A stretch of DNA of 64,000 nucleotides, taken from Myxococcota bacterium (GTDB taxonomy: Bacteria; Myxococcota_A; Polyangia; Polyangiales; Sandaracinaceae). Below are positions 142-9,321 of this stretch, piece after piece. Every line of letters begins with the position of its first letter. Position 1 is the stretch's first letter. The notes below the pieces were generated by a model that worked only from the letters and a program-made list of their open reading frames with translations, did not search any database and was not told the origin of the DNA. The stretch is taken from contig JAYZQJ010000097.1 of NCBI GenBank assembly GCA_036149055.1, forward strand, positions 1 to 64,000, given 5' to 3'. A program made the translations under genes and the position numbers.

Positions 142-1797
<1,656 letters not shown>

Positions 1798-1803
1798 TCG
1801 CGG

Positions 1804-2361
1804 TCAGAACGTCGTGGGCGCTTCCGCCGAGGCGGGCCCCGGGTGGCAGCCGTTGCAGGTGAAGGTGGCGCCCATGCCCAGCATCGTCTGCATCGCCGGG
1901 GTCACCCGCTCCTCCATGAACTGCATGTCCTCGGGGTGCGCGTCGCGCATGATCTCGTAGGCCGGGCTCGAGGGCGGCGGCACGGGCGGGAGCGACGGGT
2001 TGGGCATCGCGAACTCTCGATCCCGCATGTCGTCGCCGTGGCAGGTCTCACAACCCACCTCGGGGAACTCGTCCGCGTCGTGCTGGCGGAAGAGCTCGGC
2101 GAAGATGGGCTGGAAGCGGCCGACCATGTCCCACTCCTTCTCCTCGTGGGACATCTCGGACCAGGGCCGCTCGGGCGGGTTGATGCCCAGCATCTCGATC
2201 GCGCTGCCGCGCATCTCGTGGCCCGGCTCCACCTCGTCGCCGCTCGTGTCGAAGGTCAGCTCGTCGTCGCCGAGGTCGTCCTCGCCGCCGCCCGCCGCGC
2301 CGCCTCCGCCGCCGCAGGCCATCAGTCCGAGGGAGAGCCACAGAAAGGCGTGCTTCGTCAT
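1804..2361 (-). CDS. Lipoprotein with two CxxCH haem-binding motifs (dihaem cytochrome c)
   Basis: Lipobox GLMAC; CETCH and CNGCH motifs; several Met residues as possible axial ligands. Confidence 0.75.
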   Translation of the reverse strand: MTKHAFLWLSLGLMACGGGGGAAGGGEDDLGDDELTFDTSGDEVEPGHEMRGSAIEMLGINPPERPWSEMSHEEKEWDMVGRFQPIFAELFRQHDADEFPEVGCETCHGDDMRDREFAMPNPSLPPVPPPSSPAYEIMRDAHPEDMQFMEERVTPAMQTMLGMGATFTCNGCHPGPASAEAPTTF

Positions 2362-2402
2362 GTCGGCCGAACCTTATCCCGGCGCGGCCGAGATCGAAAC
2401 GG

Positions 2403-3872
2403 TCACCGTCCGCCGGGCACCGGCACCGGGAGGGGAGACACGGGCGCGACCGACGGCTGCTCCGCGTCCGGCGTGGTCGGCATCATCGGCGCGCCCGGCG
2501 CGAGCGGCGGCGCCTCCTGGACCGGCTGGACCCTGGCGGGCTCCGGCTCGGCGGCCCGGGTGACGGCGACCACGACGGCCGCGCCGAGGGCGAGCATCAG
2601 CAGCCCCGCGAGGCCGAAGCCGGCGGCGAGCGCGACGAGCTTCGCGCGCCCGCCTTCGCGCGGGCCCGCCGGCGCGGCGCTCGAACGCGGGGGCGCCTCG
2701 CTCGGTCGCACGGACGGGCGCGTCGGCGCGGGCGCGCGGGTCGGCGGCGGCGCGGCGCGCGGCGCGGCGATCGCCTGGGCGGTGAAGGCGCGGGCGTGGC
2801 GCGGCTGGGGCCCAGGAGCGAGAGGCGCAGGTGCAGGGGCCGCAGGTGCGGGCGGCGCAGGTGCGGGCGGCGCGGGTGCGGGCGGCGCAGGTGCGGGCGG
2901 CGCAGGTGCGGGCGGCGCAGGTGCGGGCGGCGCGGGTGCGGGCGGCGCGGGTGCGGGCGGCGCAGGTGCAGGCGGCGCAGCATCGATCCGTGTGGGCGCC
3001 GGCGGAGGCGCCGAGTGGGCGGGCAGCGCGCGCCGGGCCCACCGCTGCAGGGCCCCGCGCATCGCCCCCGCGGTCGCGTGGCGGCGGTCCGGGCGCTTCT
3101 CCATCGCGCAGCCGAGGATCGCGGCGAGCTCGGCGTCCACGTCCGGGCGATGCGTCGCGAGCGGCGTCGGCTCGTGCTCCAGGATCGCGATCATTCGCTC
3201 GGCGGCCGAGGCGCCGTCGAAGGGCAGCCGCCCCGTCAACATCACGTACCCGATCACGCCGACCGCGAAGACGTCGGTCCGCGGGTCGACCCGACCGGCC
3301 TCGATCTGCTCGGGCGCCATGAAGCCGGGCGTGCCGAGCAGCTGCCCGGTCTGGGTGAGCTGCTCGCGGCGGTGCGCGTCGAGGAGGGCCGCCAGCCCGA
3401 AGTCGAGCAGGTGCACGAAGTCCGGGACGGCCGGCGTGGACGAGAGCATCACGTTCTGCGGCTTGAGATCGCGGTGCACCACGCCGCCCGCGTGCGCGGC
3501 GGAGAGGGCGTCGAGGATCTGGGTGAGGATGGCCTGCACCCGCGGCGCCGGCATCGGGGCGGCGGCGCGGATCACGTCGTGGAGGGTCTGGCCGCGGACG
3601 AGCTCCATGACGAGGAACGGCGCCTGGTCGCCGTCGTGGAAGTCGGTCACAGGGGCGATGTTGGGGTGCTGGATGCGCGCCGCCGTGCGGGCCTCGCGGC
3701 GGAACCGAGCGCGCATCGTCGCGTCGGCCGCGTAGCGCTGCTGGAGCGTCTTGACGCACACCCGGCGGCCGAGCCCCACGACCTCCGCCTCGTACACGGC
3801 GCCGATCCCGCCGACGCCGATGGGACGCACGACACGATACTTGCCGTCGAGCAGAACGCCGGGCTCGAGCAC
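2403..3872 (-). CDS. Ser/Thr protein kinase with (PPAPA)n linker and C-terminal TM segment
   Basis: GVGGIGAVY, VCVK, HRDLKPQN, DFG, GTPGFMAPE. Start taken as GTG at 3872 (VLEPGVLLDGKY). The longer ORF to 4775 runs through a terminator and is not credible. Confidence 0.9.
   Translation of the reverse strand: MLEPGVLLDGKYRVVRPIGVGGIGAVYEAEVVGLGRRVCVKTLQQRYAADATMRARFRREARTAARIQHPNIAPVTDFHDGDQAPFLVMELVRGQTLHDVIRAAAPMPAPRVQAILTQILDALSAAHAGGVVHRDLKPQNVMLSSTPAVPDFVHLLDFGLAALLDAHRREQLTQTGQLLGTPGFMAPEQIEAGRVDPRTDVFAVGVIGYVMLTGRLPFDGASAAERMIAILEHEPTPLATHRPDVDAELAAILGCAMEKRPDRRHATAGAMRGALQRWARRALPAHSAPPPAPTRIDAAPPAPAPPAPAPPAPAPPAPAPPAPAPPAPAPPAPAPPAPAPPAPAAPAPAPLAPGPQPRHARAFTAQAIAAPRAAPPPTRAPAPTRPSVRPSEAPPRSSAAPAGPREGGRAKLVALAAGFGLAGLLMLALGAAVVVAVTRAAEPEPARVQPVQEAPPLAPGAPMMPTTPDAEQPSVAPVSPLPVPVPGGR
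2826..2980. repeat. 15-bp coding minisatellite GC(A/G)GGTGCGGGCGGC, about 9 copies (PPAPA repeats)
   Basis: Tandem units visible directly in the sequence and in the protein. Confidence 0.9.
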
Positions 3873-3893
3873 CTCCCAGACGTAACACGACGG

Positions 3894-3933
3894 AAAAGAA
3901 AAGGGGCGATCCTCCGTCGAGGACCGCCCCTTT
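3894..3933 (-). terminator. Rho-independent terminator of the minus-strand non-coding transcript
   Basis: Minus strand: AAAGGGGCGGUCCUC-GACG-GAGGAUCGCCCCUUU followed by UCUUUU. The one non-Watson-Crick pair is G-U on the minus strand and A-C on the plus strand. Confidence 0.85.
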
Positions 3934-4932
3934 GAAGCTCGCTGGCGATCGGGATGATGTCTCACCGCCCCCCGGTCTCCCGGGACGCCCGCTCCGTACG
4001 ACGCGGGGCTCTCACCCGCGCCGCCGATGGCGGCCTCTCGCCGATGGTGCGAGGCCTCGCACCACCGACACGACCATCTCCTCGTGAGTCCCGCTCCGCT
4101 CCGAGCCCGAAGGCCCGTCTCGGCTGGCGGCGCGTCGAGCGATCCGAGGATCGCCCTCCGGCTTCGGCAGACTCCGCGCCAGCCCTCCGCGTCCGGCGCC
4201 GTCGTGGGGACGGCGTCGCGGCGCGACGGGCGGTCTCGACGGTCCCAAGAGACTTGTCTCGACCCGCTCTGCTGGGCGGTCACCCGCTGTCTGACATCTT
4301 CCGTCACGGCTCGGCGAGCGACGCTCGGTTCCCGCCGATGCCCCGCTCTCCCCGCACGACCGGCACGCATGCCGGCTGCCCGAAAGCCCCCGCCCGAAGG
4401 CCAGCGGCCTCCGGCCCACCCCCTCCTCTCGGAGGACGTGGTGGGGGACGGTCGTCTCGCGCGAACGCGAACGACCACCTCGCCGTCGAGGATCGCCGTC
4501 ATCGTCCCCCCGCCGCGCGAGCGGTGTGGAGGGCGAGAGTGGACGACCCCGATGTCTTTCGTCGTTCCGATCTCCGAGCCCGCTTGAAAGGCTCGCAGCG
4601 CGCGCCCCTCCTCTCGAAGGGACCCGCTCGGACCCGCGTTCACTCCCCGAGCGCATCTCTGCGCCCGAGCCGATCGTTCTCTCACGCGCGCGCTCCTGCG
4701 GTTACCCGCGGTGCGCACCCCCTCTCGAGGGCGGTCGCGTGCGATCGTCGCCGAGCTCCCTGCGCCGGCAATCACCCGGCGTCGAGGCTCGATGAGCTAG
4801 GTCGCCTCGCGCAGCGGAGAGCCATGCTCCCCACCCGCGGCCCGAGAGATTCGGGCGATGTCGAGGGCACGTGGGCGTGCCTCGAGGGCGACCGCGGTCC
4901 TATCGACCGACGTCTGCAACTCACGATTCGCT

Positions 4933-4944
4933 GTTTTCAAAGAT
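4933..4944 (-). promoter_or_regulatory. boxA-like Nus antitermination element ATCTTTGAAAAC
   Basis: Matches the TCTTTGAAAAC form of boxA found in many rRNA leaders and spacers; an AT-rich island inside a GC-rich structured region. Confidence 0.6.
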
Positions 4945-5998
4945 GGGCACCCCGTCTCATCCGTCTCGGCGCACGCCACGTCGCGTTCCCACCCGACGTG
5001 AGTCGTTCCGCTTGCACGTCGGAACGACGCTTCGGCGAGGCGGCCAGCTCTCCCGGGGCGTTGTCTTCCCCGGGCGCTCCTTCCGCCGTACCTCTGGCGC
5101 TCCGCTCCGCGCGGGCTTTCCGATGGATCCACCGCCGAAGCGGGGTCCACCGGCTCGGCCCACTGGCCTCCTCTCGGAGGTCACGGGTCGAACCCGTCGG
5201 CCTGGGTCTGCTCGGCCGAGCCTCATGCTCGGTCCCGGCTCCGTAGACCCGAAGCGCCTTTCATGCCTCGTCGCTCTTCGCGCGCGGCCGTTCGTCCCGA
5301 CCGCGCCCTAGCTGGATGGCTCCAGCGGGCGGCGAAGCATGTCTGCCGTGTCAACCGACCCTCGGGGCACTGAAGCGTGCCTTCAGCCTCCTCCCGCACC
5401 CGAACCCGCGTGAAGCGAGCCCGGATCGCGCATCTCGGAGACCGAGCTGCGCGGCCGACCCGCCCTCCGGAGAGGACGACCCGGCTCGGTCGGACGGCGC
5501 GCGCCTCCACCCTCCTCCCGGAGAGCTTCGGTGACGACCCGACCTCGCGATCGGCCCGTCGGCGCCGGCGGAGCGCGCGACCCGAGGTGGCCCGAAGACC
5601 TCCCCCGTCCGCTCTCGCTCCGACACCCTCGTCACCCGGCCGTGAGCACGGAGGGCTGGGCGGCCCTCTGCCTCTGCGGTCGGATCCAGACCTTCAGCAT
5701 CCACGAGAGATGCCTCCAGCCGGGTGCCTTCCACCCCCGACACGCGTTCCGCCGGAGCTTCCCGCGCGCCGCCTCGCGCCCCGCATCCGTCGCCGGATGT
5801 TTCGCGCGATTCGAAACGCCTTCGCCGCGAAATCGCGGCTACGTGACGACTCGAGGACCCGTGATGGGGCTCCCCTCGAGCACCACGCTCGCCCCCGGAC
5901 TCCTGGACCTTCGCAGGCCCCCTCCCCCGGGGCCGCAGCGCCTCGGTGGCTTCTGCGACCTGAAGGCCCGAACTCGTGTTCCGCGACCTTCGACTTGG

Positions 5999-6055
5999 AG
6001 AGTACTCGGCACGACGAGAGACGCAAGAAGAAAACGCGCATCAAACGACATTATT
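5999..6055 (-). promoter_or_regulatory. sigma70-type promoter TTGCGT-N16-TACTCT with AT-rich upstream (UP-like) sequence
   Basis: -35 at 6026-6021, -10 at 6004-5999; upstream AAAATAAT...TTTTCTTC; points into the structured region. Confidence 0.65.
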
Positions 6056-6240
6056 TTGTCCACAAGCCATCCACAGCGACGCGCACCGTCTCTCCACAGG
6101 GCTTTTCAGCCTATTCCCACAAGTTTTCCACAACCCCGAGGGAGACGCCCCGTTCGCGGACAGCGTGCAAACACGATACGATCCGCTTTGAATGACGCAG
6201 AAACAGCGCAACCTACATCGTTTGAAACATACGTTTGAAC
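6041..6240. other. DnaA-box cluster plus AT-rich segment: candidate replication origin (oriC)
   Basis: Co-oriented boxes TTGTCCACA 6056, CCATCCACA 6067, CTCTCCACA 6090, ATTCCCACA 6113, TTTTCCACA 6124; flanks about 40-45% GC; tandem ACAT(A)CGTTTGAA at 6215-6239. Confidence 0.6.
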
Positions 6241-6346
6241 CACCGACACAGCGCGACCGCAGGTGACCGGCATCCCACCGCTTTCGGAGACCCAGGTACC
6301 CCCGAGACCAGGCCGGCGGAGCCCCCGTTCGGGAGTCACCGCGGCG

Positions 6347-7630
6347 TCACTTCTGCGTCACGCGGCGCAGGATCCAGGCGACGAAGATCAGGCCGAGCGG
6401 CCAGCTCGGGGTCTCGCCGGCCCCGACCCCACAAGCGCAGCCTGGCGGGCCCGGAGGGCGGCACTCGGCGGGGATCTCCGCGTCGCGCGGCGCGCCGGTG
6501 CCCCCGTCGCCGAACCCGGGCGGCACGCTCGCGTCCTGACCGAGGTCGTAGGCCACGTCGGGCGCCCAGGCGGGGCACACGACGCCCGCGGTGCTGCATC
6601 GCGGGCAGGCCACGGGGTCGACGATCTCGGAGAGCGCGAGCGCCGGCTCGACCACGCCGTCCACGACGCGCGCCAGCCCGAAGCCCGCGACCGCTCGATC
6701 CGTGCAGGCCCAGAGCTCGCCTCCGAGGGCGGCGAGGCAGGTCACCGGCAGCGCGGGATCCAGCGCCTCGAAGGTGCCTCCGTCCTCGCTCCGGTAGAGC
6801 CCGCCGAGCCGGCTCCCCGCCAGGACCGCGCCTTCGGTGGCGACCACCCCGCCGATCTGCGGGAGCGCGAGCGGGCTGGTCCAGGTCTCGCCGCCGTCCT
6901 CGCTGCGCAGGAGCCGCTCGGGCGCGAGCTCACCCGCGAAGTGCAGCATCACCGCCCAGAGCGCGTCGGGGTCGACGGGATCGACCGCCTCGAGGAGGAG
7001 CAGGCGCTCCTCGGGCTCGAAGGGGACGGGGAAGCGCTCGAACGAGCGGCCGCCGTCGTCGCTGCGGAGCAGGAAGGTCTCCCGCTCGCGCCTGTCCCGC
7101 GCCGGGATGGCGCCGGAGGCGTAGAGCCGATCGGGCCTCGACGGCGCGACCCGCACCCGGTCCACGAGCACCTCGCCGAAGCCGCTCAGCACCTCCCACT
7201 GGCGGCCGCCGTCCCGCGAGCGCCAGAGCCGATCCTCGCGCGCGACGTCGCTGGCGACCGCGTAGTAGAGGTCGCCGGGGCCGCGCTGCACGTCGACCAC
7301 GAAGGCGTCCGCCAGCCTCGCCTCCGGGCGCTCCCAGCTGCAGCCGCCGTCGGGGCTTCGCCAGAGCCCGTCGAAGGTGCCGACGAGGAGGGCGCCGTCG
7401 GGCCCGGCGATCACGGCCGGATCCTCGGAGCGCGCGTCGACGCCGAACGCGGCCGCGCACAGCCAGCGCCAGTCGCCGCCGCCGCGCACCGCCAGGCCCC
7501 AGGTGGCCTGAGCGACCAGCGTCTCCGGCGCGTCGGGGTGCGCGTCGAGGCTCTGGAGCGCGGGCGGGCGACCATGCGCCAGCGCCGAGGCGGGCGCGAG
7601 CAGGGCGAGGACCACGACCGCAGCGCGCAC
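6347..7630 (-). CDS. Secreted BNR/Asp-box repeat (beta-propeller) protein with MYXO-CTERM-like anchor
   Basis: Signal peptide; repeated SxDGGxxW/F Asp-boxes; C-terminal GCACG, TM segment and basic tail. Confidence 0.8.
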   Translation of the reverse strand: MRAAVVVLALLAPASALAHGRPPALQSLDAHPDAPETLVAQATWGLAVRGGGDWRWLCAAAFGVDARSEDPAVIAGPDGALLVGTFDGLWRSPDGGCSWERPEARLADAFVVDVQRGPGDLYYAVASDVAREDRLWRSRDGGRQWEVLSGFGEVLVDRVRVAPSRPDRLYASGAIPARDRRERETFLLRSDDGGRSFERFPVPFEPEERLLLLEAVDPVDPDALWAVMLHFAGELAPERLLRSEDGGETWTSPLALPQIGGVVATEGAVLAGSRLGGLYRSEDGGTFEALDPALPVTCLAALGGELWACTDRAVAGFGLARVVDGVVEPALALSEIVDPVACPRCSTAGVVCPAWAPDVAYDLGQDASVPPGFGDGGTGAPRDAEIPAECRPPGPPGCACGVGAGETPSWPLGLIFVAWILRRVTQK

Positions 7631-7699
7631 CGCGAGGGTTTAGCATTTCTGCTACCGTTCGCGGCAGCGGCGCCCCGCCGCAGGAAGGAACCGAGTCCG

Positions 7700-8089
7700 A
7701 TGCGTCACGCTTCGTTCGCTTTCATCTCGCTCGTCCTCACGTTCGTCGCCCTCCCGGCCTTCGCCCAGGACGACGACGTCGCCTCCCGGGTCGACGCCAT
7801 CTGCTGTGGAGCCAACTGCTGCCTCATCGGCGGCAGCTGCTTCAGCAACGGCGACGTCAACCCCGACAACAGCTGTCAGACCTGCGACGTCAGCGGCTCT
7901 CAGACCGCCTGGACCGACATGGACGGCTGCACGCCGCCCGACTCCGGCGTCGTCACGCCCCCGGCCGACTCCGGCACCGGCGGCGGAGAGGGCGGCGGGG
8001 GCTGCAGCGCGTCCCCGGCCGGATCCGCGGGGCCGCTCGCGTTCCTCGGGCTGCTCGGCGCGCTATTCTTCGTCCGCCGTCGTCGCTGA
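7700..8089 (+). CDS. Small Cys-rich MYXO-CTERM surface protein
   Basis: Signal peptide ending PAFA-Q; Cys-rich core; GGGCSAS...[17 protein letters not shown]. Confidence 0.85.
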   Translation: MRHASFAFISLVLTFVALPAFAQDDDVASRVDAICCGANCCLIGGSCFSNGDVNPDNSCQTCDVSGSQTAWTDMDGCTPPDSGVVTPPADSGTGGGEGGGGCSASPAGSAGPLAFLGLLGALFFVRRRR

Positions 8090-8365
8090 GCGCTCTTCGT
8101 CGAGCTCTCGCTCGAGCTGGGCGAGCAGCGCGCGCAGTCGGCGCCGCTCGCCCTGCCAGCGCTCGAGCAGATCGAGCGCGACCTCGAGCCCGGCGAAGTT
8201 GACCCCGAGCTGGCTGAGCCCGCAGCACACGCGGAGCCGCTCGAGGGCGCGCGCGTCGTAGCCTCCCCGCGCGTCGGGCACGATGATCTCGTGACGCTCG
8301 AGCTCGAGCACCCAGCCCTCCTCGACGTCGAAGAGCTTCGCCAGCTCGACGCGGTCGATCCTCAC
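8063..8365 (-). CDS. cbpM: Chaperone modulator CbpM-like (MerR-like) protein
   Basis: 100 aa; GTGA overlap with the cbpA stop; [17 protein letters not shown] motif typical of CbpM. Confidence 0.75.
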
Positions 8366-9321
8366 GACGCCCTCCGGAGCAGCTCCTCTCGCGGGTCCCC
8401 GTCGTACAGCGCCTCGAGCTCGGCCGCGATCCGCGCCCGGGTGGCCTCGTCGCCGCCGCGCGGCGCCACCAGCTCGAGCTCGACGTAGAGATCGCCGGGC
8501 GCGCCTCGCCGCGGCGCGATGCCCTTGCCGCGGAGCCTCAGCCGCTGCCCGTTCTGGGCGCCCGCCGGCACGCTGAGCTTCACCGTGCCCTCGAGCGTCG
8601 GCACCTCCACCTTCGCGCCCCGCAGGGCCTCGGGCAGGGTGATCGGCAGCGTGAGGCGGAGGTCGTGGCCCTCCCGCTCGAACACCGGGTGGGGCTCCAC
8701 CTCGACGCGCACGTAGAGGTCGCCGGCCGCGCCGCCCTGCCCGCCCGGGTTGCCCTGCCCCGCGAGGCGCAGGCGCTGCCCGCTCTCCACCCCCGGGGGG
8801 ATGGTGACCGCGAGCCGGCTGACGTCCCCGCGCCCCCGCGGGAGCTCGACGTGCGCGGTGGTGCCGCGCGCCGCGTCGAGGAAGCTCACCCGCAGCGACG
8901 CCTCGACGTCGGAGCCGCGTCGGGGCCCGCCGCGCTGGCGCCGGAAGAGGTCCCCGATCAGGTCCTCGAGGTCGACGTCCCCGCCGAAGCCGCCCACGTC
9001 GAAGCCGCCGGGGAAGCCGCCGTATCCGGCCCCCTGCGCGGCGTCCATGCGCCGCTTCCACTGACGGTACTCCTCCGCCTTCTCGGGGTCGTAGCCGATC
9101 TTGGCCGCGTCGGGCCCGAGCTCGTCGTAGAGCTTCCGCTTCTCGGCGTTGCTCAGCACCTCGTAGGCGGCGCTGACCCGCTTGAAGCGCTCCTCGGCCG
9201 CCGGGTCGTCGGGGTTGAGGTCGGGGTGGTGCTTGCGGGCGAGCTTGCGGTACGCCTTGCGGATGTCGTCGTGGCTGGCGCCCCGGGCTACCCCGAGCAC
9301 GTCGTAGAGGTCGTCGGTCAT
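8362..9321 (-). CDS. cbpA: DnaJ-class co-chaperone / curved DNA-binding protein CbpA
   Basis: J-domain with HPD, G/F-rich linker, DnaJ C-terminal domain, no Zn finger; followed by cbpM. Confidence 0.88.

Follow-up and report, generated by a model that had tools for sequence, protein, structure and literature searches.

Which kind of gene, if any, occupies a stretch of about 2.4 kb without coding signal between two protein genes of a myxobacterial contig? The DNA analysed (the window) comprises 64,000 nucleotides, positions 1 to 64,000 of contig JAYZQJ010000097.1 from a Myxococcota bacterium of the family Sandaracinaceae, and has a G+C content of 74%. The stretch in question lies between a gene for a BNR/sortilin-repeat protein and a kinase-like gene, and a preliminary description of this DNA had read it as a large, functional and structured non-coding RNA (ncRNA) that might be undescribed. 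The lack of coding signal, the transcript, the fold, its covariation and the comparison with Rfam all support that reading. Positions 5991-3894 of the minus strand are an independent gene for a stable, abundant and highly structured ncRNA of about 2.1 kb, and this RNA founds a previously undescribed family, so far seen only in Polyangiales-type myxobacteria.

A transcribed gene without coding signal

The G+C spread over the three codon positions (GC3 amplitude) is 0.01-0.19 across 3840-6240, compared with 0.25-0.57 in both flanking genes. Codon periodicity is thus gone over the whole interval, and among 46 homologs (collected as described below) no open frame is conserved, small open reading frames (ORFs) included, which bears out the earlier statement that no credible coding sequence is present. 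The longest stretch in which at least 70% of the members share a phase spans 127 columns; the best frames within it vary between members, and its indel lengths are not multiples of three (22/12/12 over the residues modulo 3). A stop-free frame of 790 codons (2403-4775, minus strand) fuses the kinase-like gene to 900 nt of the RNA. Because of the high G+C content, long stop-free frames of this kind are a usual artefact.

The gene has its own predicted promoter, which is conserved, and an intrinsic terminator at its end. The promoter (5999-6026, minus strand) consists of a -35 hexamer TTGCGT (6026-6021), a 16-nt spacer and a -10 hexamer TACTCT (6004-5999). All 13 aligned homologs have the TTGC of the -35 hexamer unchanged, and the -10 hexamer is kept as TAnTAT or CATAAA. 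Directly upstream, the homolog alignment and the upstream sequences reveal an A/T-rich, UP-like tract with a conserved GTTTGA(G/T) motif (6027-6055, minus strand). This promoter had been described as rRNA-like. Its hexamers and 16-nt spacer are indeed present and conserved, a consensus scan calls no site there, and the label "rRNA-like" is an analogy based on the A/T-rich tract and a spacer of 16-17 nt. The intrinsic terminator proposed earlier was recovered by a terminator search (3894-3933, minus strand) and has a 15-bp stem (3933-3900) with a GACG loop, followed by a T-run. Similarity in distant homologs begins at 5991, 8 nt past the -10 hexamer. The predicted primary transcript, of about 2098 nt, would therefore run from G 5991 (+/- 3 nt) to the T-run of the terminator (3894-5991, minus strand).

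In each of twenty public sequencing runs, at least 90% of the words sampled from the element are present; six of these runs are RNA libraries, from four studies, all marine. When one RNA run per study was compared with positions 1500-8500, flanks included, each of the four yielded exactly one long contig, and this contig consisted wholly of the ncRNA element: 3941-5967 (2027 nt, depth 25.7), 3940-5983 (2046 nt, depth 197.2), 3937-5983 (2047 nt, depth 18.7) and 3941-5944 (2004 nt, depth 83). The flanking genes had a depth of 0 in three of the runs and of 2.5-3.9 in the fourth, and in one run the RNA stood at 50-80 times the depth of the neighbouring genes. As DNA contamination would cover the flanks equally, the signal is attributed to RNA; uncovered parts of the window were not counted as silence beyond this contrast between element and flanks. 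All four contigs stop at 3937-3941, a position immediately 5' of the terminator hairpin that coincides with the 3' edge of a predicted helix that closes the 5' and 3' ends (3942-3937), and we infer that the 3' end is trimmed back from the hairpin to this helix. No splice or cleavage joints were seen in the RNA-run contigs. A metagenome collection also contains seven contigs of 1.8-2.9 kb that start 2-16 nt before the conserved 5' GAAG, four of which end just before the terminator hairpin; this is a pattern that fits assembled transcripts. Of the discrete, abundant minus-strand transcript anticipated in the preliminary description, the discrete contigs are therefore present in runs of four studies. 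The strand is assigned to minus on other grounds, namely the G-U and A-C counts, the asymmetry of tetraloops (both given below) and the terminator.

Two further features of the assembled sequences were recorded. In four metagenome contigs (L103, L076, L096 and L112) the 5' GAAG directly follows a segment from the interior or the 3' part of the RNA. L103 has RNA positions 1024-1874 followed by 1-1134, as in a circular permutation, and the junction partner varies among the four contigs while the 5' end is constant. Such junctions fit template switching by reverse transcriptase at the true 5' end; circular or tandem forms are also possible. At position 5708 the window has an A, in place of which the contigs of all four RNA runs have a G; other single differences are specific to one run. 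Strain variation is the simplest explanation; editing can be judged only with matched DNA.

Consensus fold and family

On the minus strand, positions 3894-4893 fold to -597.8 kcal/mol (z -6.55; none of 20 dinucleotide shuffles folds as well), compared with -513.8 kcal/mol on the plus strand (z -2.36, 1 of 20 shuffles as good). For the 5' half the values are -633.6 (minus) and -548.7 kcal/mol (plus); shuffled controls were made for sequences of up to 1000 nt. Folding against shuffles, a check proposed earlier, thus favours the minus strand in the part so controlled, and the ten hairpins listed in the preliminary description are all present, none displaced by more than 2 nt. In the 46 members, stems of at least 4 bp carry 457 GNRA and 176 UNCG tetraloops on the RNA strand (about 10 and 4 per molecule) versus 80 and 60 on the opposite strand. 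The argument that imperfect pairs betray selection on RNA also holds across the family: consensus pairs comprise 1959 G-U and 523 A-C cells on the RNA strand versus 736 and 846 on the other.

Compensatory changes were assessed with RNAalifold on the 46 aligned members (2177 columns with at most 50% gaps). The consensus has an energy of -418 kcal/mol and 337 pairs, 84.2% of the cells are canonical and 236 pairs have changes on both sides. Three controls were used. First, when the 3' partner was slid by 1-3 columns, only 40-42% of cells were canonical and 115-146 pairs covaried. Second, five column shuffles gave -60 to -73 kcal/mol, 106-144 pairs and 27-40 covarying pairs. Third, the reverse-complement alignment gave -302 kcal/mol and 154 covarying pairs. 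The compensatory changes expected of a functional RNA are accordingly found among the homologs. An independent count was made on a separate alignment of the central region (544 columns, 46 sequences, 52 pairs). There, 85.8% of cells are paired, compared with 68.8% in shuffles (none of 500 reached it) and 38-46% after sliding; 447 cells are changed on both sides, compared with 88-135 when slid; and the covariation score is 0.516, compared with 0.10-0.16.

The consensus fold is predicted to consist of a 5' hairpin followed by four domains, each closed by a long-range helix, and the 5' and 3' ends appear to be joined by a less well supported helix (all on the minus strand). The 5' hairpin, P1 (5964-5989), has 90% canonical cells, and 8 of its 9 pairs form in the window sequence. 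It is followed by the most conserved motif of the RNA, GGUCGCAGAAGCC (5948-5960), of which GUCG.AGAAGCC is invariant across 38 aligned members. Part of this motif contributes to the helix closing the ends (GGUCGC 5960-5955 with GCGAGC 3942-3937, the 3' strand at 3937-3942), which is 93% canonical and in which 5 of 5 pairs form. Domain 1 (5733-5950) is closed by 5950-5944 and 5739-5733 (7 bp, 5 pairs covarying) and has inner helices, and Domain 2 (5622-5728) is closed by 5728-5722 and 5628-5622 (97% canonical, 6 of 7 pairs covarying). A variable region separates it from Domain 3 (4947-5369), which is closed by 5369-5356 and 4959-4947 in the consensus fold. An inner helix of Domain 3 (5258-5251 with 5103-5096) joins strands about 350 columns from each other; it is 98.1% paired, and 6 of its 8 pairs covary. 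Domain 4 (4083-4925) is closed by 4925-4916 and 4092-4083, about 830 nt apart; all 9 pairs form in the window and 8 of 9 covary. It contains two sub-helices, 4912-4904 with 4568-4560 (6 of 9 pairs covarying) and 4556-4548 with 4301-4293 (9 of 9).

Variable hairpin expansions account for the size range of the family (1.66-2.5 kb). Short single-stranded motifs at junctions (AGAAGCC, GUCAGA and GAAGC) are invariant, and GAAGGC occurs about four times per molecule (194 observed versus 61 in shuffles), bordering the domain-closing helices on their 5' edge. The 3' edges of two sub-domains have GUCAGAGG in common. The sub-domains at 5262-5096 and 4560-4290 have common flanks, with GAAAG, a helix strand and GGGUC on the 5' side and the complementary strand and CAGA on the 3' side, which hints that the RNA grew by internal duplication of a module.

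Homologs were found at several distances. The same-genus genome G001 matches over the full length with 79% identity, six other genomes of the Sandaracinaceae have colinear conserved islands (5' end, middle and 3' end) over 1.8-2.2 kb, and five genomes from other families of the order have matches to the 5' end. None of the conclusions depends on the unpublished genome G023. Twelve loci tested share one layout, in which the conserved promoter is followed by 1.77-2.25 kb lacking codon periodicity and then by an intrinsic terminator (undetected at one locus). An exact-pattern scan with the conserved 5' motif over 185,579 species genomes gave 40 loci, of which 30 are true members, labelled Labilithrix (7), Sandaracinaceae (5), Polyangiaceae (5), Polyangiales (2), Polyangia (1), "Myxococcales" (4), "delta proteobacterium" (5) and "Proteobacteria" (1). 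The same kind of scan of metagenomes gave 74 loci with 51 true members. The remaining matches (10 of 40 and 23 of 74) belong to other phyla and were dropped as chance matches inside genes. In all, 83 homologous loci were collected, with labels that are all of Polyangia/Polyangiales type or of the older myxobacterial or delta-proteobacterial kind. A terminator was found at 47 of them, most of the others ending at contig edges; these 47 reduce to 38 non-redundant sequences at 96% identity (1658-2499 nt), and with eight divergent ones they form the final set of 46 non-redundant full-length members (1.66-2.5 kb).

A covariance model of the 5' domain matched 19 of 101 sampled genomes of the order Polyangiales, with one copy in 18 of the 19. 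The ten divergent matches that were new to this search are all full elements, one of them interrupted by a contig end. Among 121 genomes sampled across the phylum, only two matches lay outside the order, both marginal (G203 and G220, 28-30 bits); they fall inside coding DNA and were rejected, so that no genuine member outside the order was found among the genomes searched. This patchy distribution suggests that the role of the RNA is accessory rather than essential; most relatives can dispense with it. The one genome with two copies, G044, carries them at C23:13648-13802 and C8:321893-322044 (115.7 and 77.6 bits with the 5' model), and the second of these (L160), at 1854 nt, is a full-length copy that has promoter boxes and a terminator. 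The chromosome of Labilithrix luteola DSM 27648, the sole named cultured strain with a match, has a truncated copy (8026500-8033000, 5' end at about 8031544, minus strand) in which similarity covers the promoter, the boxes and roughly the first 540 nt, codon periodicity sets in from about 800 nt downstream and no terminator follows. The search made here found no cultured host with an intact copy, the L. luteola copy being truncated and the complete genome G003 lacking the RNA at the three loci examined.

No known family accounts for the RNA. Rfam 15 (4227 models, including OLE, GOLLD, ROOL, HEARO, raiA, 6S, tmRNA, RNase P, group I and II introns and the small and large subunit (SSU and LSU) rRNAs) gave no match in the 64-kb window at gathering thresholds. 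At lax E-values only three matches fell in 3700-6400, all with E of at least 6.5, and 12 diverse homologs (69,077 bases) gave none at E up to 1, as the preliminary description had expected. A swollen RNase P RNA or tmRNA was rejected, both being present elsewhere in the genome (284.6 and 162 bits). A relationship to 6S RNA is excluded by the Rfam scans and not by a second copy, the sole 6S candidate in the genome being a weak match at G000:C139:8236-8315 (34.9 bits, cut-off 46.4). A literature search, most subscription journals being outside its coverage, found no paper on such an RNA. Searches that rely on GC-rich intergenic regions find no contrast in high-GC myxobacteria, which may explain why it was overlooked.

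To our knowledge very few large, structured RNAs without known function have been described from bacteria, and each of them opened new RNA biology. With more than 500 nt, no coding content and a complex fold backed by covariation, the present RNA is of this large, ornate kind, and like GOLLD, ROOL and OLE it is a stand-alone, abundant bacterial RNA. It differs from these three in that it matches none of their covariance models, is two to three times longer and is limited to high-GC Polyangiales. OLE, ROOL and HEARO are shorter than 2.1 kb, and OLE adjoins genes for partner proteins (oapA and others), in contrast to the Polyangiales RNA, which has no conserved partner gene beside it. The available part of one account names GOLLD as the largest of GOLLD, ROOL and OLE, with numerous representatives of more than 800 nucleotides (PMC12286853). 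The earlier claim that the present RNA is longer than all four known classes therefore holds against GOLLD, and for OLE, ROOL and HEARO it depends on the sizes stated above. That same part gives GOLLD and ROOL no known function and states that OLE may sequester RpsU; it places GOLLD and ROOL in phages or prophages, often near tRNA islands, and describes OLE, GOLLD and ROOL as RNA-only multimeric complexes, GOLLD and ROOL forming nanocages, with a homo-oligomer signature in which loops covary yet stay palindromic (PMC12286853). The Polyangiales RNA, by contrast, is chromosomal with clade-stable synteny, and no covarying palindromic loops were seen in it.

In organisation the RNA resembles rRNA and RNase P RNA. 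Each of its several domains is closed off by a long-range helix, and the 5' and 3' ends apparently pair; it has a conserved core, variable expansion hairpins and many GNRA and UNCG caps; and it is abundant, with an A/T-rich tract upstream of its promoter. Unlike them it matches no SSU, LSU or RNase P model and is not universal, even within the order. With HEARO/omega RNA and group II introns it shares only that it is a large structured bacterial RNA, as no IscB, TnpB or reverse-transcriptase gene was found among the neighbours scanned, no Rfam model matches, it is single copy in nearly all positive genomes and it has its own promoter and terminator. The family is two to three times larger than GOLLD, approaches 16S rRNA in size and domain organisation and is abundant in marine metatranscriptomes. 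The 46 aligned members and the covariance model offer a route to structure determination and to a cultivable host.

DnaA-box-like repeats upstream of the gene

The best lead to a function was absent from the preliminary description. Upstream of the UP-like tract lies an array of five direct repeats that resemble DnaA boxes (6056-6132, minus strand): TGTGGAAAA (6132-6124), TGTGGGAAT (6121-6113), TGTGGAGAG (6098-6090), TGTGGATGG (6075-6067) and TGTGGACAA (6064-6056). Their pattern, TGTGGA(N)AA, is the reverse complement of TTATCCACA, which we take to be the DnaA box consensus. Every clade of the family has 2-5 direct TGTGGAnAA repeats upstream of the conserved -35 hexamer, 60-150 bp before the start. 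At least two sense-strand TGTGGA boxes are present in 56 of 62 unique upstream regions, with none in the opposite orientation in 58 of the 62, and the boxes are spaced by 10-13 bp in 54 of 79 gaps. In a set of 65 unique upstream sequences, a box within one mismatch is found at -73 to -77 in 48, and an exact one in 34.

Only three clusters of at least three such boxes exist in the organism's own genome (9.9 Mb), and the array at the ncRNA promoter is the largest. The second (G000:C248:79247-79294) lies 40-90 bp before the ATG of dnaA, on a contig that ends about 1.5 kb further on. In 21 relatives, the strict tandem pattern occurs 1-11 times per genome. Of the 20 relatives with a dnaA match, 13 have a tandem pair (TGTGGA-N5-TGTGGA) at the dnaA promoter, 375-622 bp upstream of the match to DnaA domain III (PF00308) and on its strand; among the 8 RNA-positive genomes sampled, 6 have such a site at the RNA promoter. 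Because the same tandem motif marks the dnaA promoter in the same genomes, the repeats are very likely DnaA boxes. The RNA gene is also very likely a leading member of the DnaA regulon, a prediction made from sequence alone.

DnaA is treated as a transcription factor in the available part of PMC13438810. As in DnaA-regulated promoters such as that of dnaA itself (autoregulation), the boxes here are tandem, direct, of the TTATCCACA type, 10-13 bp apart and beside a promoter; unlike in known DnaA-regulated promoters and clusters, the gene they would control is a 2-kb structured RNA. No paper linking DnaA boxes to an ncRNA was found in the literature search. The array thus offers a concrete regulatory hypothesis, which other large RNAs lacked when first described, and it suggests a giant RNA as part of these organisms' DnaA regulon. 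That the locus is an origin of replication was considered and rejected, as there is no GC-skew switch and dnaA is on another contig.

Boxes of this type were also seen elsewhere. The third cluster of the own genome (G000:C248:19514-19557) has three boxes and adjoins a gene start, and a further tandem pair lies at G000:C138:3800-3817; both may mark other DnaA-regulon genes. In the RNA-negative complete genome G003 (L165, C1:7145500-7149500), an array of TTATCCAC, then TGTGGATAAC, TTGTGGA and TGTGGAT precedes a membrane-protein gene. DnaA-box arrays stand only in front of protein genes in G003, and such arrays are therefore not tied to the RNA alone in this family. The three 4-kb array loci of G003, searched with filters off, contain no RNA, the best score being 9.6 bits.

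Possible roles of the RNA and the neighbouring genes

We consider it probable that these observations belong together as follows. DnaA would bind the array and so couple transcription of the RNA to replication initiation or growth status; the terminator hairpin would be trimmed back to the helix closing the ends; and the RNA would act in trans as an architectural RNA, most likely a ribonucleoprotein scaffold, in the manner of OLE or rRNA. Its role would be accessory, and it would be neither a sponge nor a cis regulator.

Several points weigh against this reading. With respect to function, the scaffold is a best guess; no partner gene recurs beside it across clades (27 and 53 neighbour proteins searched with Pfam); and the RNA is undetected in 82 of the 101 sampled genomes of the order, a complete 10.3-Mb genome from the same family among them. 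When palindromic kissing loops were sought, 174 of 2933 tetraloops were palindromic, about the chance level, with the best column cluster in 10 of 46 members, so that no homodimer signature stood out; other intermolecular contacts are outside the reach of this test. With respect to DnaA, its binding is deduced from the boxes themselves, the strict tandem pattern is degenerate in 2 of the 8 RNA-positive relatives, and the position of the boxes upstream of the -35 hexamer does not reveal the sign of any regulation. With respect to the transcript, the promoter hexamers are a poor match to the sigma-70 consensus (0 sites in the scan at TTGCGT-N16-TACTCT), and the start at 5991 is a prediction and not a mapped end. 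The RNA evidence consists of assembled contigs, which cannot show ends, strand or level; their coincident ends are a weak hint, and the near-palindromic hairpin could itself have made the assemblies stop short of the terminator. With respect to the fold, the alignment is sequence-based, the own genome's row pairs poorly in several variable helices and the helix closing the 5' and 3' ends has only one covarying pair.

A bolder version would make this the largest class of structured non-ribosomal bacterial RNA (up to 2.5 kb), a four-domain machine that works as a DnaA-controlled ribonucleoprotein or ribozyme and connects the state of replication initiation with a cellular process or acts back on initiation; the RNA gene would then be, with dnaA, the chief locus bearing DnaA boxes in these genomes. 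If true, this would be a replication-coupled RNA system without known precedent. We regard it as possible and rather doubtful.

That the RNA is a large ribozyme, with the conserved unpaired junction nucleotides as its active site and catalysis as in RNase P or group II introns, seems unlikely. The multi-domain fold, the long-range closing helices and the many GNRA loops are such as large ribozymes have, the junction motifs AGAAGCC, GUCAGA and GAAGC are short, invariant and single-stranded, and a catalytic RNA would agree with the lack of a conserved partner gene. It resembles no ribozyme family of Rfam 15, however, at E up to 10 in the window and up to 1 in the 12 members; the RNA-run contigs have no self-cleavage or splicing joints; and most relatives can do without it. 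A scaffold is weakly preferred over a ribozyme, since nothing speaks for catalysis.

We think it very unlikely that the RNA is a sponge that, like CsrB or 6S RNA, titrates a protein or RNA through repeated short motifs. The excess of GAAGGC and the abundance of the RNA would suit such a role, but these repeats lie at the 5' edges of domain-closing helices and not in exposed hairpin loops, and sponge RNAs are far smaller and simpler. The scaffold is preferred because the four-domain fold is unique and non-repetitive, with invariant junction nucleotides. For 6S RNA itself the organism has only the weak, sub-threshold candidate noted above.

Little probability attaches to the view that the DNA itself is the functional element, an array that titrates or modulates DnaA, with the RNA mattering mainly through its transcription. 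The datA and DARS loci of Escherichia coli and the DnaA-box clusters of Bacillus subtilis are DnaA-titrating or DnaA-modulating loci to which the array can be compared, and it is the largest DnaA-box cluster in the genome and is kept in all clades. In a by-product transcript, on the other hand, 236 covarying pairs, invariant motifs and a conserved terminator would not persist over 2 kb, nor does such a transcript fit an RNA at 50-80 times neighbour depth in one run, and the locus has no GC-skew switch or other origin-like feature.

An ornate RNA of the GOLLD/ROOL kind, borne by a mobile element or phage, is scarcely credible here. Its size and ornate form, its patchy distribution, the two copies in one genome and the AbiEii and NB-ARC genes beside it in some clades would suit such an origin. 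Against this, 2.9 million viral contigs gave 0 matches to the conserved 5' pattern of the family and 72,556 plasmids none, no tRNA gene or tRNA-like element lies within 3500-6500, synteny is stable within clades with housekeeping neighbours, and Rfam gives no match. That the element is the cis-acting leader or long untranslated region of an adjacent gene, or else coding sequence that has decayed or escaped recognition, is suggested by the 6 nt between the element and the longest ORF of the kinase-like gene and by the 790-codon frame through part of it, and is extremely improbable given the strong terminator between element and downstream gene, downstream genes that differ by clade and often lie on the opposite strand, RNA contigs that stop at both element ends and the absence of codon periodicity or a conserved frame.

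The ncRNA is single copy in its own genome. Its downstream neighbour, outside the element, is the Ser/Thr-kinase-like gene (2403-3872, minus strand), which uses the frame of the ORF at 2403-4775 with a likely start at GTG 3872 and periodicity from about 3840; the name is a reading of motifs with no basis in Pfam. Gene callers may over-extend this gene or call a false ORF across the RNA. Upstream, also outside the element, lies the gene for the BNR/sortilin-repeat protein (6350-7639, minus strand; PF15902), a neighbour kept at only 4 of 13 loci examined. Across clades the neighbours change and include BNR/sortilin, LVIVD/Big_5, LigB, PGA_cap, acyl-CoA thioesterase, SRAP, AbiEii, NB-ARC and others. 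Since they vary in this way and the downstream genes, which differ between clades, are often convergent, the RNA gene stands on its own. Nowhere in the window is the GC skew of the plus strand stronger than at 4001-8000 (-0.093); the RNA strand is rich in G, as expected from the many G-U pairs of the RNA.

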